From the NCBI GenBank assembly GCA_963796055.1, contig CAWCKH010000004.1:416001-480000 (forward strand): a DNA stretch of 64,000 bases. Reading direction: 5' to 3'. The translations under genes were made by a program, and so were the position numbers. Origin of the DNA: an uncultured delta proteobacterium (GTDB lineage: Bacteria; Myxococcota; Myxococcia; Myxococcales; Myxococcaceae). Below are positions 52,254 through 63,787 of the stretch, one piece after another. A model generated the notes under the pieces. The model was not told the origin of the DNA and did not search any database. It saw nothing but the letters and a program-made list of their open reading frames with translations. The number at the start of each line of letters is the position of its first letter. Position 1 is the stretch's first letter.

Positions 52254-53888
52254 TCAGAAGCGGTGCCGGAACAGCGACGCATACGAGGGCAGCGCGTCGC
52301 GCCAGAACCGGATCTTCTTCCCCTCGGCGAAGCCGCGCGCCACGTAGTTGACCGGCACCTCCATCGGCGAGTGGCCGTTCCTGGCCAGCTTGCAGGCCAG
52401 CTCGATGTCCAGCTCGAAGCCGTTGGACTTCAGATCCAGCCCGTCGAGGCACTCGGCGCGGAACACCTTGAACATGGTGTTCACGTCGGTGACGCGCTGC
52501 TGGTAGAGCACGCTGTAGGTGCGGGCGAACACCAGCTGGGCGAAGTTGAGGAGTAGCCCGCGCACCGGCGTCGCCTCGAACTTGCGCACCTTCCAGTCGT
52601 CGAGGCCGAGACTGCGCGAGCCGAGCACGAAGGTGGCCTTGTGCTGGAGCAGCGGCTCGAGGAGAGCGTCGTAGTCGTCGATGTCGTACTCGAAGTCGGC
52701 GTCCTGGATGAGCACGATGGTGCCGGTGACGTGGGCCAGGCCGGTCCGCACCGCATGGCCCTTGCCACGCGGCCGGTCCTCGAGCACCAGGCGCACCCCG
52801 CGCCGGCCGGCGTAGCCCTCGACGATCGCCCGGGTCCCGTCGGTGGAATTGCTCTCCACGATGATCAGCTCGCGGTCGATCTTCAGCGGCTTGGCGAGCA
52901 CCGCGTCGATGACCTCGGCCACGTAGCGGGCCTCGTTGTAGACCGGCAGCACGATCGACAGCTTCTCGCCGACATTCGCCTCGCCGGAGCGCCGGCCGAA
53001 CACCGCCACCCGGTTGCCGGAGCGCACCGGCATCTCCACGTCCCCGAGCGGCGTGGAACGCAGCACGGTCGAGAGCGCCGGCTGGACCACGATGCGGGAG
53101 ACGATGTCCCCGGCGTAGCGCGCGGTGCGCCTGACAGGAAGCGCATACTGAGTCTTGAGGACCAGCCCCATGCGCCCGGCCAGAGCGGTGAGGTTGCCGG
53201 TGCTGAGGAAGGTCGCCTTGTGGTCGAAGAACTGCGACCAGTACTTGCGCATCATCCGCGCCGGGATCGAGTCCGCGTTGGTATAGGTGACCACGAACAG
53301 CGTCTCCGGCGGCAGCGCCCCCACGAGGTGTGAGAGGACGGCGTGCGGAGCGGCCAGGGACTCCAAGAGCTCGGCCAGGATGACGACCTGTGGTTCCCGT
53401 GCCAGGTAGGGAGCGGCCCACTCCATGTCGGAGTCGAGCGCCAGGCGGGTGAAACGCGCGTCGTCGAAGCCGGCGACCTCCAGGCCGACCCGCGCCGCCG
53501 ACGGCACCCGCGCGAACTCCGGCAAGTACCTTCCGAGGAGCAGCGTGCGCCGGAGCGGCGTTCCCCCGATGTGCTGGTGATCGCGCTCCACGCGCTGGAG
53601 CAGGCGCTCGAAGTCCTCGGACATGAGCTCCCGGTCACGCGGGTGCGAGAAGTTCTGGATTCGCTCGATGTCGAGGTCGTTGAACGGCCTCTCGCGCGTC
53701 GGGTTGACGTAGACCGCGCCGCAGGCGGTGCAGCGCACGAACCGGACGCCGGCGCGATGGAAGAGATAGCTCGCCCGGTCGGCCTGGCAGGCCGGGCAGT
53801 CCACGAAGCGGCTGTGGGCGCGGGCGGTTCGCACCGCCGAGGTGGGGGCGAACTGGAACGAGCGCGCCGGGTTGTCCGTCCGGGTCAC
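52254..53888 (-). CDS. fusion: Zn-ribbon + degenerate SAM-methyltransferase-like domain + DPM-synthase-like GT2
   Basis: CPAC...CTAC; C-terminal LSIVLPVYNE, STDGT, GKGHAVRTG, IQDADFEYD, GSR, EVPVNYVAR...GKK. Confidence 0.85.
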   Translation of the reverse strand: MTRTDNPARSFQFAPTSAVRTARAHSRFVDCPACQADRASYLFHRAGVRFVRCTACGAVYVNPTRERPFNDLDIERIQNFSHPRDRELMSEDFERLLQRVERDHQHIGGTPLRRTLLLGRYLPEFARVPSAARVGLEVAGFDDARFTRLALDSDMEWAAPYLAREPQVVILAELLESLAAPHAVLSHLVGALPPETLFVVTYTNADSIPARMMRKYWSQFFDHKATFLSTGNLTALAGRMGLVLKTQYALPVRRTARYAGDIVSRIVVQPALSTVLRSTPLGDVEMPVRSGNRVAVFGRRSGEANVGEKLSIVLPVYNEARYVAEVIDAVLAKPLKIDRELIIVESNSTDGTRAIVEGYAGRRGVRLVLEDRPRGKGHAVRTGLAHVTGTIVLIQDADFEYDIDDYDALLEPLLQHKATFVLGSRSLGLDDWKVRKFEATPVRGLLLNFAQLVFARTYSVLYQQRVTDVNTMFKVFRAECLDGLDLKSNGFELDIELACKLARNGHSPMEVPVNYVARGFAEGKKIRFWRDALPSYASLFRHRF

Positions 53889-54883
53889 GGCGAGAGGACC
53901 TCCGCAGGCCGCTGGCGGTGGTCCACGAAGGGGTGGGCCTCGAGGAACGCCAGCGTCTCGACGATGCTCTCCTCGATGCTGCGGGTGGGGGCCCAGCCGA
54001 GCGCGCGCAGGCGCCCGGTGTCGAGGAGGATGCGGGGCGAGTCCCCCACCCAGCCGCGCTCTCCGCCGAGGTGCACGATCCGCGGGTTCACGCCCAGGGT
54101 GGCGGTGATGACGGCGACGCTCTCATCGACCTCGATCCACTCCTGGTGCCCGAGGTTGAAGAGGTTGATCGGCTCCCGCGCCTGCTCGATGGCCAGCAGC
54201 ATGCCGTTCACGCAGTCGCCGACGTGGAGGTAGCTCTTCCTCTGGCGGCCGTTGCCCAGCACCTCGAGGCGGGTGGGGTCGCGCCGCAGCCGGCGCCAGA
54301 AGTCGATGACGTGCCCGTGGGTGTAGCGGGCGCCGAGCAGCGAGACGAAGCGGAAGATCCACACCCGGAAGCCGTAGCCCAGCGCGTACGAGGTGAGGAG
54401 CCCCTCGGCGGCCAGCTTCGAGGTGGCGTAGATCGACGTCTGGATGGGGAACGGCGCGTCCTCGGGGGTGGGCACCACCGTGGCCTCGCCGTAGACCGAG
54501 CCGGTCGAGGCGAAGGCCACCTCGCGCACCCCCGCCGCGCGCATCGCCTCGAGCAGGTTCTGGGTGGCCACCACGTTCTGGTCGATGCACCTGCGCGGCT
54601 CGAGGAGGTTGTCCTTGATGTCGGCGTTGGCCGCCAGGTGGAACACGAAGTCGCAGCCCTCCAGGGCGCGCCCCGCGGCCACCGGATCGAGAAGGTCGGC
54701 CTCGACCAGGCGAGCACCCGCGGGCACGAACTGCCGCCAGCCGGTGGAGAAGTTGTCGAGGATGGTGACCTCGGCTCCCTGCGCCAGGAGCCGATCGGCG
54801 ACATGGCTGCCGACGAAGCCGGCGCCTCCGGTCACCAGCACCCGCCGCCCCGCGAAGCTCGCCATCGACGCCGGTACGGCCAT
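53885..54883 (-). CDS. NAD-dependent epimerase/dehydratase (extended SDR)
   Basis: TGGAGFVG, HLAANAD, STGSVYG, YATSK; TGATG overlap with the transaldolase. Confidence 0.92.
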   Translation of the reverse strand: MAVPASMASFAGRRVLVTGGAGFVGSHVADRLLAQGAEVTILDNFSTGWRQFVPAGARLVEADLLDPVAAGRALEGCDFVFHLAANADIKDNLLEPRRCIDQNVVATQNLLEAMRAAGVREVAFASTGSVYGEATVVPTPEDAPFPIQTSIYATSKLAAEGLLTSYALGYGFRVWIFRFVSLLGARYTHGHVIDFWRRLRRDPTRLEVLGNGRQRKSYLHVGDCVNGMLLAIEQAREPINLFNLGHQEWIEVDESVAVITATLGVNPRIVHLGGERGWVGDSPRILLDTGRLRALGWAPTRSIEESIVETLAFLEAHPFVDHRQRPAEVLSP

Positions 54884-55542
54884 CAGCGTGGGCCGGAGCG
54901 CTTTCGCCAGGCCTCGTTGAACTCGGCGATGGTCTCGACGGTGCGCGGGTTCCACACCATCTTGCGCAGGATGTCCGGGGGCACGGTGACCACGTGGGCG
55001 CCCGCGTCGAGGGCCTCGTTCACGTCCATCAGGTGGCGGATGGAGCCGACGATGATCCGCGACCCCAGTCCCTCGCGGTCGAGGGTCCTGCGGGTGGCCT
55101 CGATCACCGGGCGCGCGTCGTAGCCCATGTCCCGGATGCGCCCCGAGAACAGGCTGACGTAGGTGGCCCCCGAGAGGGCCGCCAGGTAGGCCTGGTTGAA
55201 GGCCATCAGGCAGGTGACGTTGGTCTTCACCTCGCGCCGCCGCAGCCCGTGGAGGACCCGCAGCCCCACCTCCGAGAACGGCACCTTGACGGTGATCCGC
55301 TGCGGATCCCAGGCGTGATAGCCGACCGCCTCGGCCATCATCTCCTCCTCGGACTCGGTGGTGAGCTCGACCGAGACGTCGCCGGTCGACGCCGAGAGCA
55401 CCTCGCGGATCACCTCTGCGAGGTCGGCCCCCGGTGACTCACGGGAGATGATCAGGGGATTGGTGGTCACCCCGGAGAACGAGCCCCAGGAGAAGAGCGC
55501 CTTGATTTCCTTCGGATCGGAGCTGTCTACGAACAGGGCCAC
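54883..55542 (-). CDS. tal: transaldolase (short TalC/FSA type)
   Basis: FVDS, GVTTNP, VKVP Schiff-base Lys, NVT, YVSLFSGRI, GSIR, VTVPP. Confidence 0.88.
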   Translation of the reverse strand: MALFVDSSDPKEIKALFSWGSFSGVTTNPLIISRESPGADLAEVIREVLSASTGDVSVELTTESEEEMMAEAVGYHAWDPQRITVKVPFSEVGLRVLHGLRRREVKTNVTCLMAFNQAYLAALSGATYVSLFSGRIRDMGYDARPVIEATRRTLDREGLGSRIIVGSIRHLMDVNEALDAGAHVVTVPPDILRKMVWNPRTVETIAEFNEAWRKRSGPR

Positions 55543-55554
55543 GGTCTCCTCCTA

Positions 55555-56164
55555 CTACATCCGCCCGGCGATCGCCGTGGCGATCTCCAGCAGCGTCGGC
55601 CCATGCACGTCGGCACCGAGGTCGGGGCGCTCGCGCAGGGGGCAGAGCTCGCAGCGCGACGTCGGCACGAGCAGCGCCGTGCGCAGCCCCGCGGCCCGCC
55701 CCGCCTCGACGTCGGCAGGCGAATCCCCAATGGCCCAGGAGCGGGCCGCGTCGCCCCGCAGACGCGCGAGCAGAGACCGGAGCATCCCCGGCCGCGGCTT
55801 CCGGCAATCGCAGGTCCGCACCAGAGCTCGGATCACCCCCCGGGCCGCCCTGCGGGTGGTGCTCGCACACCTCCACGGCGGCGATGGACACGCCCTGCGC
55901 GTCGAGCAGCGCGAGGAGGGCAGCGTTGGTGCGGGCCACCGCGGCGCGGGAGATCTGCCCCTTGGCCGGACCCGGCTGGTTGGTGGCCATGGCCAGCACG
56001 AAGCCCGCGCCGGCGAGCGCCCGCAGTCCCTCCACCGCGCCGGGGAGGAGGCGCAGCTGGGCGGGGTGGAACGCGGTCACGATTGTGCCCGTCTCCTCGT
56101 CACGCACCAGGTCGATGAGCGTGCCGTCGCGGTCGAGGATGGCCAGCGGCAAAAGCCCGCTCAC
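55555..56164 (-). CDS. gmhB: heptose 1,7-bisphosphate phosphatase, apparent frameshift at about 55825-55841
   Basis: LDRDGTL, TNQ, CEHHP in one frame; CDCRKPRPGM and IGDS..DVEAG in the adjacent frame. Confidence 0.85.
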
Positions 56165-56757
56165 CGGAGGCTCTCCCACTTGGTCGGCGTGCGCTGCAGC
56201 TCGGGGTGACTCACCAGCAGGTGCCACACCACCGCGCACATCCCCTCGGTGTGCGGGGTGACCCGCTCGGCGGCCACGGTGGGGATGAGCACGCAGGCCT
56301 CCGCCAGCGCGCGGGTGCTGCCTCCGTCCCGCCCGACGATGCCGAAGATGTGGGCGCCCACCTCGCGCGCGTGCTCCAGGGCGCGAACCAGGGCCACGCT
56401 CACGTTCCGCTCGCGGCTCCCACCGCCCACCGAGAACACCAGCACCCCGTCGCCCTGGCGCAGGCGCGAACCGCGCAGCCACTCGACGAAGCAGGAGTCC
56501 CAGCCGTCGTCGTTGATGCGCGCGGTGAGCTCGCTCACGTTGTCGGTCGGGGCGTAGGCCTCGAATCCGCAGAGCTTCCGGAAGTCGTTGACCGCGTGGC
56601 TGGCGTGGCCGGCGCTCCCCCCCACGCCGAGCACGAAGAGGCGCCCGCCGTCGGCACGGACGCGGGACAGGCCGGTGGCCACTGCCTCGATGGCGGCAGG
56701 GTCGAGCCTGGCGAGGATCTCGGCGCTCTCGGCGAGGTAACTGGCAGTGAAGCTCAC
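56161..56757 (-). CDS. gmhA: phosphoheptose isomerase (SIS domain)
   Basis: GVGGSAGHASH, TARINDDG, FSVGGG, GRDGG. Confidence 0.85.
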   Translation of the reverse strand: MSFTASYLAESAEILARLDPAAIEAVATGLSRVRADGGRLFVLGVGGSAGHASHAVNDFRKLCGFEAYAPTDNVSELTARINDDGWDSCFVEWLRGSRLRQGDGVLVFSVGGGSRERNVSVALVRALEHAREVGAHIFGIVGRDGGSTRALAEACVLIPTVAAERVTPHTEGMCAVVWHLLVSHPELQRTPTKWESLR

Positions 56758-56766
56758 GGGAGGTCC

Positions 56767-57762
56767 CTAGGAACGGTGGAAGTTGGCCATGATGCGGGCG
56801 CCGTCGAAGTCGAAGCGGAAGCGCATCGGGCGCAGCCCGCGGGCGGTGAGCGCCTCGTGGACCCGGCGGCGCTCCGCGGGGCGGACGTAGAACATGAAGA
56901 AGCCCCCGCCCCCGGCGCCCATCAGCTTGCCGCCGATGGCGCCCGCCTTGCGGGCGGCCTGGTAGTGCTCGTCGATCACTCCGTCGGTCATCGCCTCGGT
57001 CAGGCGGCGCTTCTGCGTCCAGTGCTCATGCAGCATCTCGCCGTAGGAGTCGAGCTCGCCGGCGAGGAGGATGCGCCGGGTCTCGTGGCCCAGCGCCTTG
57101 ATCCGATGCATGCGCTCGATGGCGGCGTCGCGGTTCTCGACGATGGCGCTGGCCTGCTGCGCCAGCACCGACGAGGCGGCCCGCTCCACCCCGGAGTAGA
57201 AGATGACCAGCTTGGTCTCCAGCTCGTCGATCACCTCGTCGCGGAGATCGAGCCGCTCCACCTCGACGCGGCCGTCGGGGTGGAAGGTCATCGCGCTGAT
57301 GCCGCCGTACGCGGCGATGTACTGGTCCTGCTTGCCGATGGGCTCCCCGAGGACGTCGATCTCGAGATGGCAGGCCTCCCGCGCCAGCTGCTCGGCCGGC
57401 ACCGACTCGCGCCGGAAGGCATGGAGGCCGTTGAGGAGCGCCACGGTGAAGCTCGAGGAGCTGCCCAGGCCGGTGTTGGCCGGTACGTCGGCCAGACTGT
57501 GGAGCTCGAGGCCGCCGGTGAAGCCCATCCCCTCGAGCGCGGCGCGGAAGATCCGGTGGCGGATCTTGTCCACCGAGTCCACGGTCTCGGTCTCCGAGTA
57601 AGCCAGGCGGATGGTGTCGTAGAAGCGCCGGGCGACGCAGACGAACACGAACTTGTCCACGGCGGCGGAGACGACGAAGCCGCCGTGCTCGCGGGAATAG
57701 GAGGGGAGGTCGCTGCCTCCGCCCCCCAGCGAGAAGCGGACCGGCGCGCGGGAGACGATCAT
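56767..57762 (-). CDS. hddA: GHMP kinase, D-glycero-alpha-D-manno-heptose-7-phosphate kinase-like
   Basis: SRAPVRFSLGGGGSD, GLGSSS, IGKQDQY, GGKLMGAGGGGF. Confidence 0.88.
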   Translation of the reverse strand: MIVSRAPVRFSLGGGGSDLPSYSREHGGFVVSAAVDKFVFVCVARRFYDTIRLAYSETETVDSVDKIRHRIFRAALEGMGFTGGLELHSLADVPANTGLGSSSSFTVALLNGLHAFRRESVPAEQLAREACHLEIDVLGEPIGKQDQYIAAYGGISAMTFHPDGRVEVERLDLRDEVIDELETKLVIFYSGVERAASSVLAQQASAIVENRDAAIERMHRIKALGHETRRILLAGELDSYGEMLHEHWTQKRRLTEAMTDGVIDEHYQAARKAGAIGGKLMGAGGGGFFMFYVRPAERRRVHEALTARGLRPMRFRFDFDGARIMANFHRS

Positions 57763-58460
57763 CGGGAGCTTCGCAAGTGGTGGTCGAGGTCGGCCCAGCC
57801 GGCCGGGGAGCCGATCTGGAAAAACCTCTCACGGACCACGAGGGCGCGCAAGCGCCCCCGCCCCGCCAGATCTTCTTGTAGCCGGTCGAGGCCGAGCGGC
57901 ACGCCCGGGGGCAGCACCTCGACCACCTCGCGCCGCAGGGCGGTGGCGCCATAGTCGATGTGATCGAACTCCGGGCCAGCGGGGTGCTTCCGGTAGCGGA
58001 GCACCCACGCCCCGTCGGTCACCACGTTGGAAGGCTCGAAGCGCCCGGCGTTCCGGTAGACCGCCATCACCCCCTCGCAATCGGCGTGACCCTCCAGGAG
58101 CCGGAGCGGCTCTCCGTAGTCGAAGGGCAGATAGCTGTCGCCGTAGGTCACCAGGAATCGGGGCGAGAGCAGCGGCAACGCCGCCCGCAGCGCGCCCGCG
58201 GTCCCGAGCAGCCGGCCGGGCTCCTCCACCGCGTAGCGCACCGAGAGGCCGTGTCGCGCGCCATCGCCTACGTGGTCGCGGATGGCCTGGCCGAGGTGGG
58301 CGATGCACAGGACCACCTCGCCGATGCCCGAGCCCGCGAGCAGCTCCAGCTGCCAGTCGATGAAGGGGCGGCCGCCGACCTCGAGCATCGACTTGGGGAC
58401 CCGCTCGGTGTGTGGATGCATCCGCGTGGCCAGGCCGCCGGCGAGCACCACCGCTTGCAT
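57759..58460 (-). CDS. hddC: sugar-1-phosphate nucleotidyltransferase, heptose-1-P guanylyltransferase-like
   Basis: LAGGLATRM, PKSM, LGTAGAL, YGDSYL; short protein without a hexapeptide domain. Confidence 0.8.
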   Translation of the reverse strand: MQAVVLAGGLATRMHPHTERVPKSMLEVGGRPFIDWQLELLAGSGIGEVVLCIAHLGQAIRDHVGDGARHGLSVRYAVEEPGRLLGTAGALRAALPLLSPRFLVTYGDSYLPFDYGEPLRLLEGHADCEGVMAVYRNAGRFEPSNVVTDGAWVLRYRKHPAGPEFDHIDYGATALRREVVEVLPPGVPLGLDRLQEDLAGRGRLRALVVRERFFQIGSPAGWADLDHHLRSSR

Positions 58461-58474
58461 CGGGGACCCGTTGC

Positions 58475-60031
58475 TCACTGCACCCGCCGGATGACCCAGG
58501 GATGTTTCCACGGATTGGCGCCGTGGGGCTCGAAGGCCTCGTGGACCTCCTGCCCCGGGAACCGGGCCGCCACCTCCGCGGCCGACACCCTCGCCGGCAC
58601 CGAGAGCAGCAGCGGCGAACGGTCGAAGAACATGCCGTTCCGGGCATAGCGCGTGGGCCACTCGGCGCGGAGGATCACCACTCCGGAGCGGACGCCCTGC
58701 CGGGCCAGCTCCTCGGACAGGCCGGTATGCACCTTCACCTCGGGGATGCGCCGCTCGAGGTACGAGGCGATCAGGAACAGCGGCGCGATCCAGATGCCCA
58801 CCCCCACCACCCAGCCCATGCGCCGTCCGAGCTGCCGCCTGACGAAGGCGGCGGCGGTGCTCCAGCCGGCGGCGGCCAGGAAGGCCAGCGGCAGCAGCAG
58901 CATCGAGAGATAGCGGGGGCGGGGGCTGTCGTCGGGCTCGTTGAAGGTCAGCAGGACGGCGGCCACGAACAGGGCGATGAGCACCCCGAAGAAGCGCTGC
59001 AGCGGCGCCGTTCGCCCCTCGCCGGCCGCCTGCTCCCGCCGGAGCGCCACCCACCCCAGGCAGGCCAGGAGCGCCGCGCCGGGGACCGTCCACTGGAAGA
59101 AGAACGTCTCCAGCTCGGCCAGGTGGTGGAAGATCTGGAGGGGCTCGACCACGTGCAGCGGGTGGATGTTGCTGACCGAGCCGCTCTCTCCGTAGATGGC
59201 CACGAAGCCCGGGATGTCGGCCTTGTACCCGTCGGTGAAGGGCGAGCCGAACTGAAGCTTGTTGTACCAGAGGTCGAGCGCGACGAAGGGCAAGGAGCTT
59301 CCGCCGGCGATCAGCAGTGGCCGGAGGCTGCCGAAGGCGATCAGCGACAGCCCCAGGAGCGCGCCATCCACCGGCCGGATGAGGAACACACACCCGACGC
59401 ACAGTCCGAACAACACCAGATATCCGTCGCGCCGCGACCGCGCCCACAGGGCCACCGCCAGCGTCGCCAGCGCGCCGAAGAGCAAGGTGGGGGTGTGGGA
59501 GAGGAAGGTCGCTGCCTGGTAGGCGAAGAGCGGCGCCGCCGCCAGGAACGCCACCGCCAGGAAGGCGCGCCGGGCGTCGAGCACCGCCCGGGTGGCGAAC
59601 CAGAACGCCACCAGGGCCAGCACGCCCTCGAGCGGCGTCACCAGCCAGGGGACTCCGGCCCGCACGCCGAGGGAGAGGAGCGTGGCCGTGCCCGGCGGGT
59701 ACTTGCTGCGGACGTAGGCGTCGATGACCACGTGGTCCACGGCGGCCCAGTCGGCGTAGGGCGGCGCCCGGGCCTTGAGCGCGCCGCGCGCGAACCCCTC
59801 GGCCTGGAGCAGCATCGAGTACTCGTCGCCGGCGTAGGGGTAGCCCTGCAGGGCGACCCGCGCCAGCAGCGCGTAGAAGACGCCGGCGACGACGATGAGC
59901 AGCGCCGCGCGCCGCCCGTAGCGGGGAACGCCCTTTCGAGGCTCGATCGGATCGCGCCTCTCCGCTCGCACCTCGGGTTCGGCGGGAGCGAGCTCGGTGG
60001 CAGACGAATCCGTACCGGACGTTGGGTTCAC
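58475..60031 (-). CDS. GT-C-type polytopic membrane glycosyltransferase (PMT/ArnT-like)
   Basis: First TM followed by GDEYS (DE motif), SKYPPG, about 11 TM; 14 nt upstream of hddC. Confidence 0.7.
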   Translation of the reverse strand: MNPTSGTDSSATELAPAEPEVRAERRDPIEPRKGVPRYGRRAALLIVVAGVFYALLARVALQGYPYAGDEYSMLLQAEGFARGALKARAPPYADWAAVDHVVIDAYVRSKYPPGTATLLSLGVRAGVPWLVTPLEGVLALVAFWFATRAVLDARRAFLAVAFLAAAPLFAYQAATFLSHTPTLLFGALATLAVALWARSRRDGYLVLFGLCVGCVFLIRPVDGALLGLSLIAFGSLRPLLIAGGSSLPFVALDLWYNKLQFGSPFTDGYKADIPGFVAIYGESGSVSNIHPLHVVEPLQIFHHLAELETFFFQWTVPGAALLACLGWVALRREQAAGEGRTAPLQRFFGVLIALFVAAVLLTFNEPDDSPRPRYLSMLLLPLAFLAAAGWSTAAAFVRRQLGRRMGWVVGVGIWIAPLFLIASYLERRIPEVKVHTGLSEELARQGVRSGVVILRAEWPTRYARNGMFFDRSPLLLSVPARVSAAEVAARFPGQEVHEAFEPHGANPWKHPWVIRRVQ

Positions 60032-60175
60032 GGATTTCTTTTGACCCCGCTCGCGGGCCACGGTCAACGCCGTCTCGACGAAACCAGGGGGCTTGCGCTC
60101 CCGCTCTCCCTGCGGGTACTCCACCGACCGCGCTCGTGCGGAGGCCGCGCCCGATGGTGTCTCGACGATGAGCCG

Positions 60176-61711
60176 ATGAGCCTGCCCTCTCCGGAGCGCC
60201 CGCGCGGGCCGAGCGCCCCTGCCGCCGAGGACGGCGGCGCCGCCCGGCCATTCACCCCGGCGGCGAAGCGGCTGTGGCCGTGGGTCGGCTGGCTCCTGCT
60301 CTCCTTCGGGCTGTGGAACAGCTGCGCTTCCCACGCGGACGCCCGCCGGAGCGATGCGCAGCTCGCCCGGGGCGACCATCGACTCACCCCGGCCTTCGCG
60401 CTGGCCGCTCTGCGCGGCGCGGGCACCGACGATGGCGACATCAGCCGCTACCTGGCGTACGCCAACGCCACCCTGGGGCGGCCCTACCAGCCCTTCTACC
60501 TGCGGCCGCTCGAGGGCTGGACCGGGCCCCAGCCCGACAAGGCCGCCGGCCCCGATCCCGACGATCCGCGCCAGACGCCGCCTCGGCGTCCCGACCGACC
60601 GCTCGTGCCCTATCGGGACTTCTCGGTCGAGTACCCGCCGGGCCTCTTCCTCCTGGTGCTGCCGCCGGCGCTGCTGGGTCTCGACCTCGACGGCTACCGC
60701 CTGGTGTTCTCGTGCTGGATGGCGCTGCTCCTGACGGTGGCGCTGCTGGCTGCCATCCGCATCGGACGGGTGCTGCGGCCGCTGGCGGCTCCGTCGCCGG
60801 TGGCGGTGGCGACGCTCCTGGGGCTGGCGCTGGGGACCGTCGCCGTGCGGCGGTTCGACGCCATCGTCTCCCTCTCGCTGTGCCTGCTCCTCGACGGCTG
60901 CCTGCGGCGCAAGCCGGTGCTCTCCGGGCTCGCGCTCGGGGTGGGGCTGGTCGCCAAGGTCGTGCCCGTCCTCGTGCTCCCGGTGGCGCTCGTCCACTGG
61001 GGTGCCCAGCGGCGCTGGCGGGAGCTGGCGGTGGCAGCGGGGGTGACCGGCGCCGTCGTCCTGGGGGTGGGAGCACCGTTCCTCCTGGCGGCCGGCAGCC
61101 ACCTCCTGGATCTGTTGCGCTATCACGCCGGGCGGCCGCTGGAGGTGGAGAGCACCGGTGCGGCGCTGCTCACCATCGGGCGCTTCTTCGATCCAGCCTC
61201 GGCATGGCGGGTGGAAGCCTTCGGCTTCGACAACGTGGTGGGCCCGGCGGATCGCTTCCTGCTGCCGCTGGCGGACGTCGCGCCGCTCGTGGCCACGGCA
61301 GGCATCGCCGCCTGGAGCCTGGTGCAGACGCGGGCGGCGCTGCGGGGAGCGGACGGGGAGCGGGTCTCCGGCGAGATCCTGGTGCGCGCCGCGTGCGCGA
61401 CCCTGGCGGCGACCATGACCCTGGGGAAGGTGTTCAGCGCGCAATACCTGACCTGGCTGCTACCGGCGGGCGCGCTGGTGTCGGTCCTCGACGCCGGCAG
61501 CCGGCGGCGGACGGCCATCTACTTGCTGGCGGCGGCCATGCTGCTGACCCAGCTCAACCAGCACGTCTTCTACGGGCTCCTGGGGCGCGGGCCAGAGCCG
61601 TTGCTGGGGGTGCTTGTCCTGGCAAGGAACGCGCTGGTGATGGCCTGGGCGGTGTGGATCCTCGTGCCACGACCGGGCTCGCGTTCCTCCGCCGGGAGCT
61701 CGACCCCCTAG
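60176..61711 (+). CDS. GT87/DUF2029-like membrane glycosyltransferase
   Basis: DISRYLAYA, VEYPPG, RRFD, AKVVP, RPLEVES, KVFSAQYLTWLLP. Confidence 0.8.
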   Translation: MSLPSPERPRGPSAPAAEDGGAARPFTPAAKRLWPWVGWLLLSFGLWNSCASHADARRSDAQLARGDHRLTPAFALAALRGAGTDDGDISRYLAYANATLGRPYQPFYLRPLEGWTGPQPDKAAGPDPDDPRQTPPRRPDRPLVPYRDFSVEYPPGLFLLVLPPALLGLDLDGYRLVFSCWMALLLTVALLAAIRIGRVLRPLAAPSPVAVATLLGLALGTVAVRRFDAIVSLSLCLLLDGCLRRKPVLSGLALGVGLVAKVVPVLVLPVALVHWGAQRRWRELAVAAGVTGAVVLGVGAPFLLAAGSHLLDLLRYHAGRPLEVESTGAALLTIGRFFDPASAWRVEAFGFDNVVGPADRFLLPLADVAPLVATAGIAAWSLVQTRAALRGADGERVSGEILVRAACATLAATMTLGKVFSAQYLTWLLPAGALVSVLDAGSRRRTAIYLLAAAMLLTQLNQHVFYGLLGRGPEPLLGVLVLARNALVMAWAVWILVPRPGSRSSAGSSTP

Positions 61712-62130
61712 CTGACTGCGGCCGCCCGGACCTCACCGACTGCAGCCCCGTCGACACCCTGACCCGGACCTCGACTGCGGCCGCGGCCTGACCAAGCTGA
61801 CTGCGGCCGCCCGGACCTCACCGACTGCAGCCCCGTCGACACCCTGACCCGGATCTCGACTGCGGCCGCGCCCTGACCAAGCTGACTGCGGCGGCCCGGA
61901 CCTCACCGACTGCAGCCCCGTCGACACCCTGACCCGGATCTCGACTGCGGCCGCCGCCTGACCAAGCTGACTGCGGCCGCCCGGACCTCACCGACTGCAG
62001 CCCCGTCGACACCCTGACCCGGACCTCGACTGCGGCCGCCCTGACCAAGCTGACTGCGGCCGCCCGGACCTCACCGACTGCAGCCCCGTCGACACCCTGA
62101 CCCGGATCTCGACTGCGGCCGCCCTGACCT
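61710..62130. repeat. tandem array, 5 copies of an 83-85 bp unit
   Basis: Units start at 61710, 61795, 61880, 61965, 62048 (85, 85, 85, 83, 83 bp); consensus AGCTGACTGCGGCCGCCCGGACCTCACCGACTGCAGCCCCGTCGACACCCTGACCCGGAYCTCGACTGCGGCCGC(SS)CCTGACCA. Confidence 0.98.
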
Positions 62131-63787
62131 AGCGGTCTCTCCGCCTGAGCTGCTCCACGGCATGATCGCAGGCGCGAACGGTGACCGCCATCTCGGTGAG
62201 GGTCGGGTTCTGCCATCCGGACGTCGGCCAGCACGCCCCGTCGGTGACGAACAGGTTCTGCACGTCCCAGCTGCGACAGCTCGGGTCGACGACCGAGCTG
62301 CGCGGGTCGGTGCCCATCCGGGCGCCGCCCACCTCGTGGACGAACATCCCCGGCGTGGAGAGAGTCCATTCCTTCTGCATCTTCCGGATGTGGCCAGTGA
62401 CGAAGGGGGTGTGGAACAGCTCGGTCACCTCGGCGCACCGTCCCCCGCCCGCCTCGACGATCTCCCGCGCCGCGGCCCGGGCTGCGCGCGCGAGGACCAG
62501 GTCCTCGTCCTTCCACTCGCAGACGATGTGCGCCGCGGGGATGCCCCAGGCGTCCTTCAAGATGGGATCGATCTCGATCCGGTTGTCGCGGTGGGGCAGC
62601 GTCTCGGAGCGCGCGCAGAGGAACCCGAAGGCCGCCTCCTTGTGCCTCCGGAGGAAGCTCGGCACCGGCAGCCGCTGGATGCCGCCCCACAGACCGAAGC
62701 CGCGGAGATAGGGCTCCCGCCTCGCTCCGAGGTTCTGGTACCGGGGAATCATGATGCTGTCGCTGCCCAGCAGCTCGAACGGGCCGCCGGTGTCCGGCAC
62801 GCCGGGCAGGTAGAAGTAGACGTTGCCCGCGCTGTGGTCCATCACGTGGCGCCCGAGCACCCCGGAGGCGGCACCGATGCCCGCGGGGTGGGCGTTGCTC
62901 CGCGAGTTCATGAGAATCCGCACGCTCTCCAGGGACGACGCGCAGAGGAAGACCAGCTTGCCCTGCGCCTCCTCGGTGCGGCCGGTCTCGAGGTCCACGA
63001 ACTCCACCCCGGTGGCGCGCGTGCCGTCCGGGGTCACCAGGACGTGGGCGACGACCGCGCCACTTCGCAGGGTCAGCCGGCCGGTCTCCTCCGCGGCCCG
63101 GAGCGTCGTCGCCGGGCTCGAGATGCGCGAGAGCGCCTCGCCCTTCTCCGGCGGCCGCCGGGCGAACAGCCCCCGGGAGATGATGACCCGCCGCTCGGGA
63201 AACACCCGCTCCACCCGCTCCTTGAACAGGCGCTCCGCCGGGGTCATCGGTCGTGGCTCGAGGAACTCCCCGTCGGGCAGCTGGGGGAGCCCCTCGCGCG
63301 AGCCGTGCACCCCGAGCAGCCGCTCCAGCTCGGAGTAGTGCGGCGCGAGGTCGGCGTGGGAGATGGGCCAGTCGGGGCCGAATCCGTCACGGCTCGCCGC
63401 CTTGAAGTCGAAGTCCGAGAAGCGGGGCGTCACCGCGTCCCACACCAGGGTGCGGCCGCCCACGCGGCGCGAGCGGATCCACCGGAACGGCTTGTCCGGT
63501 GGGGTGGAGTACGGGTTCTCCACGTCGTCCACGAAGAAGTCGGGGTTGGTGGCCCAGTAGGTGGGGTGGCTCTTCTGCACCTCCTGCCGGTGCGAGACGA
63601 GATGCCGGTAGAGCTGCTTCACCCCATTGGTGAGGAACGAGCCGTGGTCGCTCCGGCGCGTGACCGGCGTCCCGGCCTCCAGCACCAGGACGCGCAGCCC
63701 CGCCCGGGTGAGTTTCCATGCTGCTGCGCCACCGGTGGCGCCCGAGCCGACCACGATGGCGTCCCATTCCTCCACGGACCCGTTCAT
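62129..63787 (-). CDS. GMC family oxidoreductase (gluconate/glycoside dehydrogenase flavoprotein-like)
   Basis: GSGATGG, VLEAG, GGRTLVW, DWPI, HEVGGARMG, NLFVTDG, QNPTLT. Confidence 0.93.
   Translation of the reverse strand: MNGSVEEWDAIVVGSGATGGAAAWKLTRAGLRVLVLEAGTPVTRRSDHGSFLTNGVKQLYRHLVSHRQEVQKSHPTYWATNPDFFVDDVENPYSTPPDKPFRWIRSRRVGGRTLVWDAVTPRFSDFDFKAASRDGFGPDWPISHADLAPHYSELERLLGVHGSREGLPQLPDGEFLEPRPMTPAERLFKERVERVFPERRVIISRGLFARRPPEKGEALSRISSPATTLRAAEETGRLTLRSGAVVAHVLVTPDGTRATGVEFVDLETGRTEEAQGKLVFLCASSLESVRILMNSRSNAHPAGIGAASGVLGRHVMDHSAGNVYFYLPGVPDTGGPFELLGSDSIMIPRYQNLGARREPYLRGFGLWGGIQRLPVPSFLRRHKEAAFGFLCARSETLPHRDNRIEIDPILKDAWGIPAAHIVCEWKDEDLVLARAARAAAREIVEAGGGRCAEVTELFHTPFVTGHIRKMQKEWTLSTPGMFVHEVGGARMGTDPRSSVVDPSCRSWDVQNLFVTDGACWPTSGWQNPTLTEMAVTVRACDHAVEQLRRRDR

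Follow-up and report, generated by a model that had tools for sequence, protein, structure and literature searches.

Three described systems come close to the locus reported here. In lincosamide producers (Streptomyces lincolnensis, S. caelestis) a guanosine diphosphate (GDP)-activated octose is made by LmbR, LmbN, LmbP, LmbK, LmbO and LmbM. Published tables mark four of these, LmbR, N, K and O, as confirmed and list the celesticetin enzyme CcbN as 71% identical to LmbN (PMC4351081, Table 2; PMC12945683, Table 1). The LmbR reaction is described as using ribose-5-phosphate (PMC5854111). The GmhA/HddA pathway leads to a GDP-heptose, and the two routes are described with different stereochemistry: the lincosamide intermediate is a gluco sugar (PMC4351081) and the product of GmhA is a manno sugar (PMC5387315). 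Three-component glycosylation systems, as defined in PMC11127046, combine a synthase of a lipid-linked donor, a flippase and a GT-C membrane glycosyltransferase; examples are GtrA/GtrB/Gtr*, ArnC/ArnT and the pentofuranose systems with GT136. We analyzed a stretch of 64,000 nucleotides (nt), here called the window, from an uncultured member of the Myxococcaceae (assembly GCA_963796055.1, contig CAWCKH010000004.1, positions 416,001 to 480,000), which carries an operon resembling parts of all three. We give an even chance to the idea that, by analogy with the lincosamide enzymes, this operon makes a GDP-octose, which a GT2 glycosyltransferase is predicted to load onto polyprenyl phosphate and a GT-C enzyme to transfer outside the cytoplasm. 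Gene content, folds, residue signatures and co-occurrence, reported below, are direct observations.

The host genome measures 5.5 Mb and is 98.5% complete; the window lies on its contig C4, and the nearest relatives are labelled as metagenome-assembled genomes of Myxococcaceae. A sequence-only reading of the window had described eight minus-strand genes and a divergent GT87-like gene, and this layout of nine genes was confirmed in position and order. Within the run the genes are separated by 14, -4, 9, -4, 12, -1 and -4 nt; a further 144 nt separate the run from the divergent GT87-like gene. Pfam assigned PMT_2, NTP_transferase, GHMP kinase, SIS_2, HAD, TAL_FSA, Epimerase and Methyltransf_23 plus Glycos_transf_2 in operon order, and GT87 to the divergent gene. 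The features are:

58475..60031, minus strand: GT-C membrane glycosyltransferase, PMT_2-like, about 518 amino acids (aa), with a small C-terminal alpha/beta domain (Pfam PF13231, E 1.6e-6)
57759..58460, minus strand: sugar-1-phosphate nucleotidyltransferase, LmbO/CcbO- or HddC-like (Pfam NTP_transferase), of predicted guanylyl specificity
56767..57762, minus strand: GHMP anomeric sugar kinase of the HddA/LmbP family (similarity to CcbP and heptose-kinase structures)
56161..56757, minus strand: SIS-domain phosphosugar isomerase of an Asp/Glu class, LmbN/CcbN-like (residue signature, bit scores, trees)
55555..56164, minus strand: HAD-IIIA bisphosphate phosphatase, GmhB/LmbK-like, frameshifted (both halves match GmhB-type models)
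54883..55542, minus strand: small dedicated transaldolase with a putative LmbR/CcbR role (Pfam TAL_FSA)
53885..54883, minus strand: NAD-dependent epimerase of the GDP-sugar 4-epimerase subgroup, CcbM/LmbM-like (PDB matches, CcbM identity)
52254..53888, minus strand: fusion of a zinc ribbon and methyltransferase-like region with a DPM1/ArnC-type GT2 (Pfam, NCBIfam, Foldseek)
60176..61711, plus strand: GT-C membrane protein of the GT87 family that may or may not belong to the system (Pfam GT87, E 1.7e-9; Atlas GT87 clusters)

All sugar enzymes and the GT2 of the operon are soluble. The six enzyme families of the lincosamide GDP-octose sub-pathway are all encoded together in the operon, which differs from that sub-pathway in adding a DPM1-like GT2 and a GT-C and in being without LmbL/Z/S, LmbT and LmbC/D. 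Homologues of LmbC, D, E, T, V, S, L and Z were absent from the locus and flank genes (the whole genome was not searched for these). Because LmbL/Z/S, LmbT and LmbC/D are missing at the locus, the operon is expected to make neither an amino-dideoxy sugar nor an antibiotic. With the GmhA/HddA pathway the operon shares four enzyme families, its kinase scoring 164-172 bits to the reference model and structure; it differs in an isomerase without E65 and Q172, in the additional transaldolase and GDP-sugar 4-epimerase, and in scores below the cut-offs. By the features tested, the system is neither a member of the GmhA/HddA heptose pathway nor an antibiotic cluster. The names hddC, hddA, gmhA and gmhB that the genes had been given fell short of the curated models (66 of 300, 164 of 600, 45 of 209 and 54+44 of 178 bits, GmhA being modelled by TIGR00441), although the HddA and HddC models, with their cut-offs of 600 and 300 bits, are narrow, so that a score below them says little about function. 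Moreover, the reference Ccb octose enzymes also stay below the cut-offs of the heptose models (GmhA 86 bits for CcbN, HddA 119, HddC 41), and since true octose enzymes thus resemble weak heptose enzymes, similarity labels cannot decide the sugar. This reference came from a search of 401 genomes of a large actinomycete genus; the cluster was picked by a CcbD identical to the CcbD in the PDB, and the remaining Ccb names were assigned by homology and gene content. Judged by similarity and N-terminal sequence, four actinomycete genomes (L113, L114, L115 and L116) carry lincosamide-like R, S, O, P, Z, N, M, L and K genes and a T-like transferase; the 20 kb fetched around them contained no LmbC/D, and these genes may encode an uncharacterised C8-sugar natural product.

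The isomerase departs from the GmhA of the heptose pathway in its active-site residues. The zinc ligands of GmhA are H61, E65, Q175 and H183 in gonococcal numbering (PMC5387315). Where GmhA has H61, E65, Q172(175) and H180(183), the window isomerase has H, D, E and H, and CcbN shares both the Asp at 65 and the Glu at the Gln position (65 and 172 in E. coli GmhA numbering). By these residues the window enzyme belongs to an Asp/Glu (D/E) class and is not a canonical, E/Q-type GmhA. Its bit scores run the same way: CcbN gives 59 and E. coli GmhA 34, and no solved GmhA exceeds 40. A search for homologues of the isomerase brought up close relatives alone, all of them named automatically. In a tree of 80 SIS rows (six were dropped, three broken by frameshift or truncation and three duplicates) a single branch split 47 D/E from 29 E/Q rows with a Shimodaira-Hasegawa-like approximate likelihood ratio (SH-aLRT) of 100, four rows fitting neither class, and in a careful 29-row tree the E/Q branch received 100/99. 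Because the lincosamide intermediate is gluco and the GmhA product manno, the D/E signature may set C2 stereochemistry besides, or in place of, chain length.

We compared 31 core D/E loci (median 19.9 kb fetched; three from genomes selected by GT2) with 27 E/Q loci (16 kb) and nine outer D/E loci. A small transaldolase was present in 26, none and none of these, a CcbM-type epimerase in 25, none and one, and a DPM1-like GT2 in 19, none and none, respectively; CcbZ-like genes occurred in 11 and CcbL-like genes in 8 of the core loci and in none of the E/Q loci. That the operon enzyme is simply the housekeeping copy was rejected, as a separate long transaldolase is encoded elsewhere in the genome (G000:C4:2170291). 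All 31 cluster transaldolases, CcbR included, are without P131 and D137, and all 18 myxobacterial housekeeping enzymes keep both. Staphylococcal housekeeping transaldolases share part of this motif, so its loss is no proof of a cluster role. At least two divergent transaldolase subtypes serve the clusters.

The epimerase belongs, by sequence similarity, with GDP-sugar 4-epimerases and CcbM. Its top PDB matches (3EHE, 8RDG/8RDI, 3ICP and 3AW9) reach 199-279 bits, the next match 134, and it is 40% identical to CcbM (205 bits); 8RDH, 3EHE and 3AW9 are described as GDP-sugar 4-epimerases (PMC12171764). The nucleotidyltransferase scores 84 bits to CcbO and 50-52 to the heptose-pathway structures 5XHW and 6JQ8. 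Its closest structure is 4Y7T (88 bits; MurU), so that GTP use is only a prediction. A kinase tree sorted kinases by the class of the neighbouring isomerase; having no characterised HddA and carrying long-branch warnings, it was not used as evidence.

The alternative that survives best, though we judge it unlikely, keeps the lipid-carrier system and changes the sugar. Here the transaldolase would top up sedoheptulose-7-phosphate, the isomerase would set a gluco C2, as LmbN does with the octose, and the 4-epimerase would yield D-glycero-D-galacto-heptose. It draws on the gluco outcome of the LmbN route as against the manno outcome of GmhA, by which the D/E signature may fix C2 stereochemistry and not length, on the window transaldolase, which retains the ordinary E60/F132/R135/S167/R169 set, and on the occurrence of complete D/E modules that do without a transaldolase (L134, L135, L146, L169). 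However, sedoheptulose-7-phosphate is already an ordinary intermediate of the pentose phosphate pathway, the cassettes repeatedly contain CcbZ- and CcbL-like genes as well, no transaldolase lies in the 27 E/Q loci, and the term does not occur in the available text of a survey of 33 Campylobacter jejuni serotypes (PMC10680097). The four transaldolase-free loci, full nucleotide-sugar modules of which two have RmlC-type epimerases, are candidate gluco-heptose pathways in their own right.

We then considered how the sugar might reach a lipid carrier. The GT2 fusion protein consists of a four-Cys zinc ribbon and a degenerate methyltransferase-like domain (residues ~30-300) followed by the GT2 domain (~308-544), which carries the motifs VESNSTDGT and QDADFEYD (DxD-type); no transmembrane (TM) segment was predicted in it. 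The four Cys are invariant (30 of 30). The N-terminal domain matches Pfam Methyltransf_23 with 32 bits, and as its motif I (LLLGR) contains a single conserved Gly, it is probably inactive. Among NCBIfam profiles the GT2 domain matched AglJ best (99 bits) and also PpgS (45 bits) and DPhHx, over the whole domain and always below the cut-off. A structural model with a predicted local distance difference test (pLDDT) value of 79 retrieved DPMS and ArnC structures at Foldseek ranks 1-7, with TarP, GtrB and GpgS just behind. Profiles and model thus agree with the proposed DPM1-like GT2, and use of polyprenyl phosphate is predicted.

The first membrane protein likewise has the GT-C fold assigned to it. 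Its model (mean pLDDT 68) matched OST-B with Z 17.1 (root-mean-square deviation (rmsd) 5.5, 404 residues aligned), AglB with Z 16.6 and ArnT with Z 16.1 (rmsd 4.5, 381 aligned); the top 20 rows of the fold search were all GT-C-fold proteins, unrelated rows beginning at Z 6.6. A search of PDB sequences with the GT-C profile gave no match, unlike the fold search. The motif GDEYS after TM1 is invariant, and its acidic pair D40/E41, in the first external loop, is kept in 15 of 15 aligned relatives. As for the second membrane protein, sequence supports the GT87 family (38 bits against a Pfam gathering score of 25; Atlas GT87 clusters). The proposal of two GT-C enzymes in one system held for the first protein and became doubtful for the second, because a GT87-like gene lies beside the GT2 in just 6 of 65 loci, all from close relatives. 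GT87 as a fixed part of the system was not supported. The genome has a GT87 paralogue on contig C1, ten PMT_2 matches in total and several further DPM1-like GT2s.

The linkage of sugar genes, GT2 and GT-C-type genes, which the sequence-only reading had proposed to survey, was seen across genomes from both the GT2 and the isomerase side. None of the three outcomes by which that reading would have been refuted was observed. Searching with the GT2 yielded 65 loci, 63 with both fusion domains, in Myxococcaceae, Kofleriaceae, Polyangiaceae and monoderm Solirubrobacterales. The fetched stretches contained the isomerase in 21, the transaldolase in 22, the kinase in 23, the same GT-C family in 16 and GT87 in 6 loci; GtrA or LPG_synthase_TM was found in 20. 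A Pfam-supported GT-C was present in 23 of the 65, rising to 53 when multi-TM orphan families are counted, but these count as candidates only, because their profile comparison with GT-C families was weak (75-80% probability at best, in 2 of 7 families). Among the 44 genomes with an isomerase-less GT2 locus, ten were tested and all encode the isomerase elsewhere, one copy being broken. Among 355 genomes sampled from the phylum without selection, the isomerase clade occurred in 26 and the GT2 clade in 8, all within those 26. A survey of the genus found kinase, cluster transaldolase and GT2 in 9 of 13 genomes and none of them in the other four (66-98% complete). The same GT2 accompanies the sugar genes in Myxococcota, Actinomycetota and on a Lawsonia plasmid, where the module sits with a stand-alone VESxS-clade GT2, a dehydrogenase, a Gfo/Idh/MocA oxidoreductase and an LPG_synthase_TM gene. 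This plasmid, NC_008014.1 of the pig pathogen Lawsonia intracellularis (L095), carries a complete R/N/K/P/O/M/L/Z-like set and several large unannotated proteins. Separately, in L118, L124, L126, L128, L205, L206, L207 and L217 the same sugar module occurs with GT2s of another clade, which are AglJ-like, ~410 aa long and have four TM segments; pairing of the module with lipid-carrier GT2s may therefore have happened repeatedly.

Compared with the three-component systems described in PMC11127046, the locus has the same combination of a polyprenyl-phosphate-type GT2 with a GT-C, and the GT2 is constant between genomes while its GT-C partner varies. It differs in a predicted C7 or C8 donor with its own supply operon, in a TM-free GT2 joined to a zinc-ribbon/methyltransferase-like domain, and in having no flippase in the operon. 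Elsewhere the genome has two GtrA genes and four for LPG_synthase_TM, one of the latter ~3 kb past GT87 and beyond the window. LPG_synthase_TM is a putative flippase of lipid-linked sugars, a role to which the NCBIfam name "flippase-like domain" of one relative points.

It is quite unlikely, in our view, that the GT2/GT-C pair and the sugar module are mere neighbours, or that the GT2 acceptor is soluble or a polymer, with other transferases using the sugar and the GT-C using an ordinary undecaprenyl phosphate (Und-P)-hexose. Two loci (L026, L050) do have adjacent GT-C, epimerase and GT2 genes without the five sugar genes, yet both genomes carry another copy of the module elsewhere. The ten PMT_2 matches and further DPM1-like GT2s of the genome speak for this reading, as does the presence of the module in Wzy- or GT4-type loci of other genomes; on the other hand, the genes overlap within one operon, and the isomerase-based search recovered the same VESxS-type GT2 adjacent in Lawsonia and actinomycetes.

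That the sugar is manno-heptose we also consider quite unlikely: the kinase is equally close to characterised heptose kinases and CcbP and the window isomerase is the sole GmhA-like gene in a genome with split HldE and GT9 genes, but two of four GmhA zinc ligands are changed, scores lie far under the curated cut-offs, and the HldE kinase half is present in G007 (98% complete), G013 and G023, none of which shows a SIS_2 match. The sequence-only reading had started from GDP-D-glycero-D-manno-heptose, which the sugar probably is not, as the isomerase is of the Asp/Glu class to which CcbN belongs and the dedicated transaldolase and GDP-sugar 4-epimerase complete an octose set. It was right that the locus has no GT9, GT4 or HldE; two GT9 genes and split HldE halves lie elsewhere in the genome, the HldE halves and one GT9 in the lipid A cluster (L087, L090; G000:C3:425850-429810). 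Neither this genome nor several of its near-complete relatives yielded a canonical GmhA. Of five relatives tested, four have the HldE kinase half, including the three without a SIS_2 match, so HldE is independent of this operon, and a link of the operon to the heptose of the lipopolysaccharide (LPS) core was rejected.

Several observations weigh against a GDP-octose and its transfer through a lipid carrier. The operon proteins are just 30-40% identical to their Ccb counterparts, and the kinase does not discriminate (CcbP 166 bits, 3K85 172, 4USM 163). The transaldolase scores 138 bits to a housekeeping structure against 114 to CcbR, and it has retained Glu60, a position occupied by Gln in CcbR. 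In the isomerase tree the window clade groups with CcbN at 87/84, and a grouping with E/Q GmhA was not rejected by the approximately unbiased (AU) test (p-AU 0.29). A transaldolase is missing from all nine outer D/E loci, of which four do contain a kinase, so the D/E signature alone is no proof of a C8 sugar; the E/Q control loci come mostly from actinomycete kin. On the carrier side, 12 of the 31 core D/E loci have no DPM1-like GT2, the co-occurrence of GT2 and isomerase in all eight sampled genomes derives from two lineages only, GpgS and TarP, whose acceptors are not lipids, lie within ~10-50-fold of the top Foldseek E-values, and no flippase gene was found within the operon. Finally, the pathway may be broken in this genome and intact in relatives, because the phosphatase gene is frameshifted in this assembly. 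One extra base near 55,826 splits this HAD/gmhB-like gene into halves covering model positions 3-97 and 97-147. GC content at third codon positions is 0.93 ahead of the break and drops behind it to 0.62 if the original frame is kept, against 0.91 if the frame is shifted. A DNA alignment showed five relatives without the extra base, their genes intact at 202-208 aa, and no second GmhB-type gene was found in the genome.

Beyond the GT87 gene, an 85-bp GC-rich unit is repeated five times (95% matches) at 61710-62133, between the convergent GT87 and GMC oxidoreductase genes. The next operon (62129-63787 of the window and L221, G000:C4:478132-494113) encodes an inositol-1-phosphate synthase-like protein, a DegT aminotransferase, LPG_synthase_TM, an aldo-keto reductase and a GMC oxidoreductase, and adjoins genes for GH3, aldehyde dehydrogenase, ArnT-like PMT_2 and MMPL proteins. 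These genes may form a second pathway that modifies the envelope, in this case by means of an aminocyclitol.

Returning to the proposed octose pathway, its steps, together with chain length, nucleotide, flippase and acceptor, are inferred by analogy with LmbR/N/P/K/O/M. The transaldolase would transfer a C3 unit from fructose-6-phosphate or sedoheptulose-7-phosphate to ribose-5-phosphate, giving D-glycero-D-altro-octulose-8-phosphate, which the Asp/Glu isomerase would convert to D-erythro-D-gluco-octose-8-phosphate. Kinase, phosphatase and nucleotidyltransferase would then produce GDP-gluco-octose, to be interconverted with its galacto form by the 4-epimerase. The soluble GT2 would work at the inner membrane face and make Und-P-octose; flipping would fall to a GtrA or LPG_synthase_TM protein encoded at an unlinked site, and the GT-C would attach octose, one residue per site, to a glycan or glycoprotein of the periplasm. 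As the module occurs in monoderm actinomycetes, the acceptor need not be LPS.

Described lipid-linked single-sugar donors are hexoses, amino sugars and pentofuranoses. Neither a polyprenyl-phosphate heptose or octose donor nor an unbranched octose pathway in surface glycans was found in the literature searched, most subscription papers lying outside its reach; the heptose alternatives, too, would imply a lipid-linked donor not described there. In its broadest form, the idea we would back as readily as its opposite is that a polyprenyl-phospho-octose donor exists and that the octose pathway, so far known from lincosamide antibiotics alone, is a widespread surface glycosylation module of Myxococcota, monoderm Actinomycetota and Desulfovibrionaceae, pairing a dedicated VESxS GT2 clade with exchangeable GT-Cs that attach octose to glycans or proteins of the envelope, the Asp/Glu SIS signature separating gluco-forming isomerases from manno-forming GmhA and many gmhA genes being misannotated. 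If true, this would provide a two-residue rule for re-annotating "GDP-heptose" operons, add a new donor class for GT-C enzymes and point to the likely origin of the lincosamide sugar pathway.

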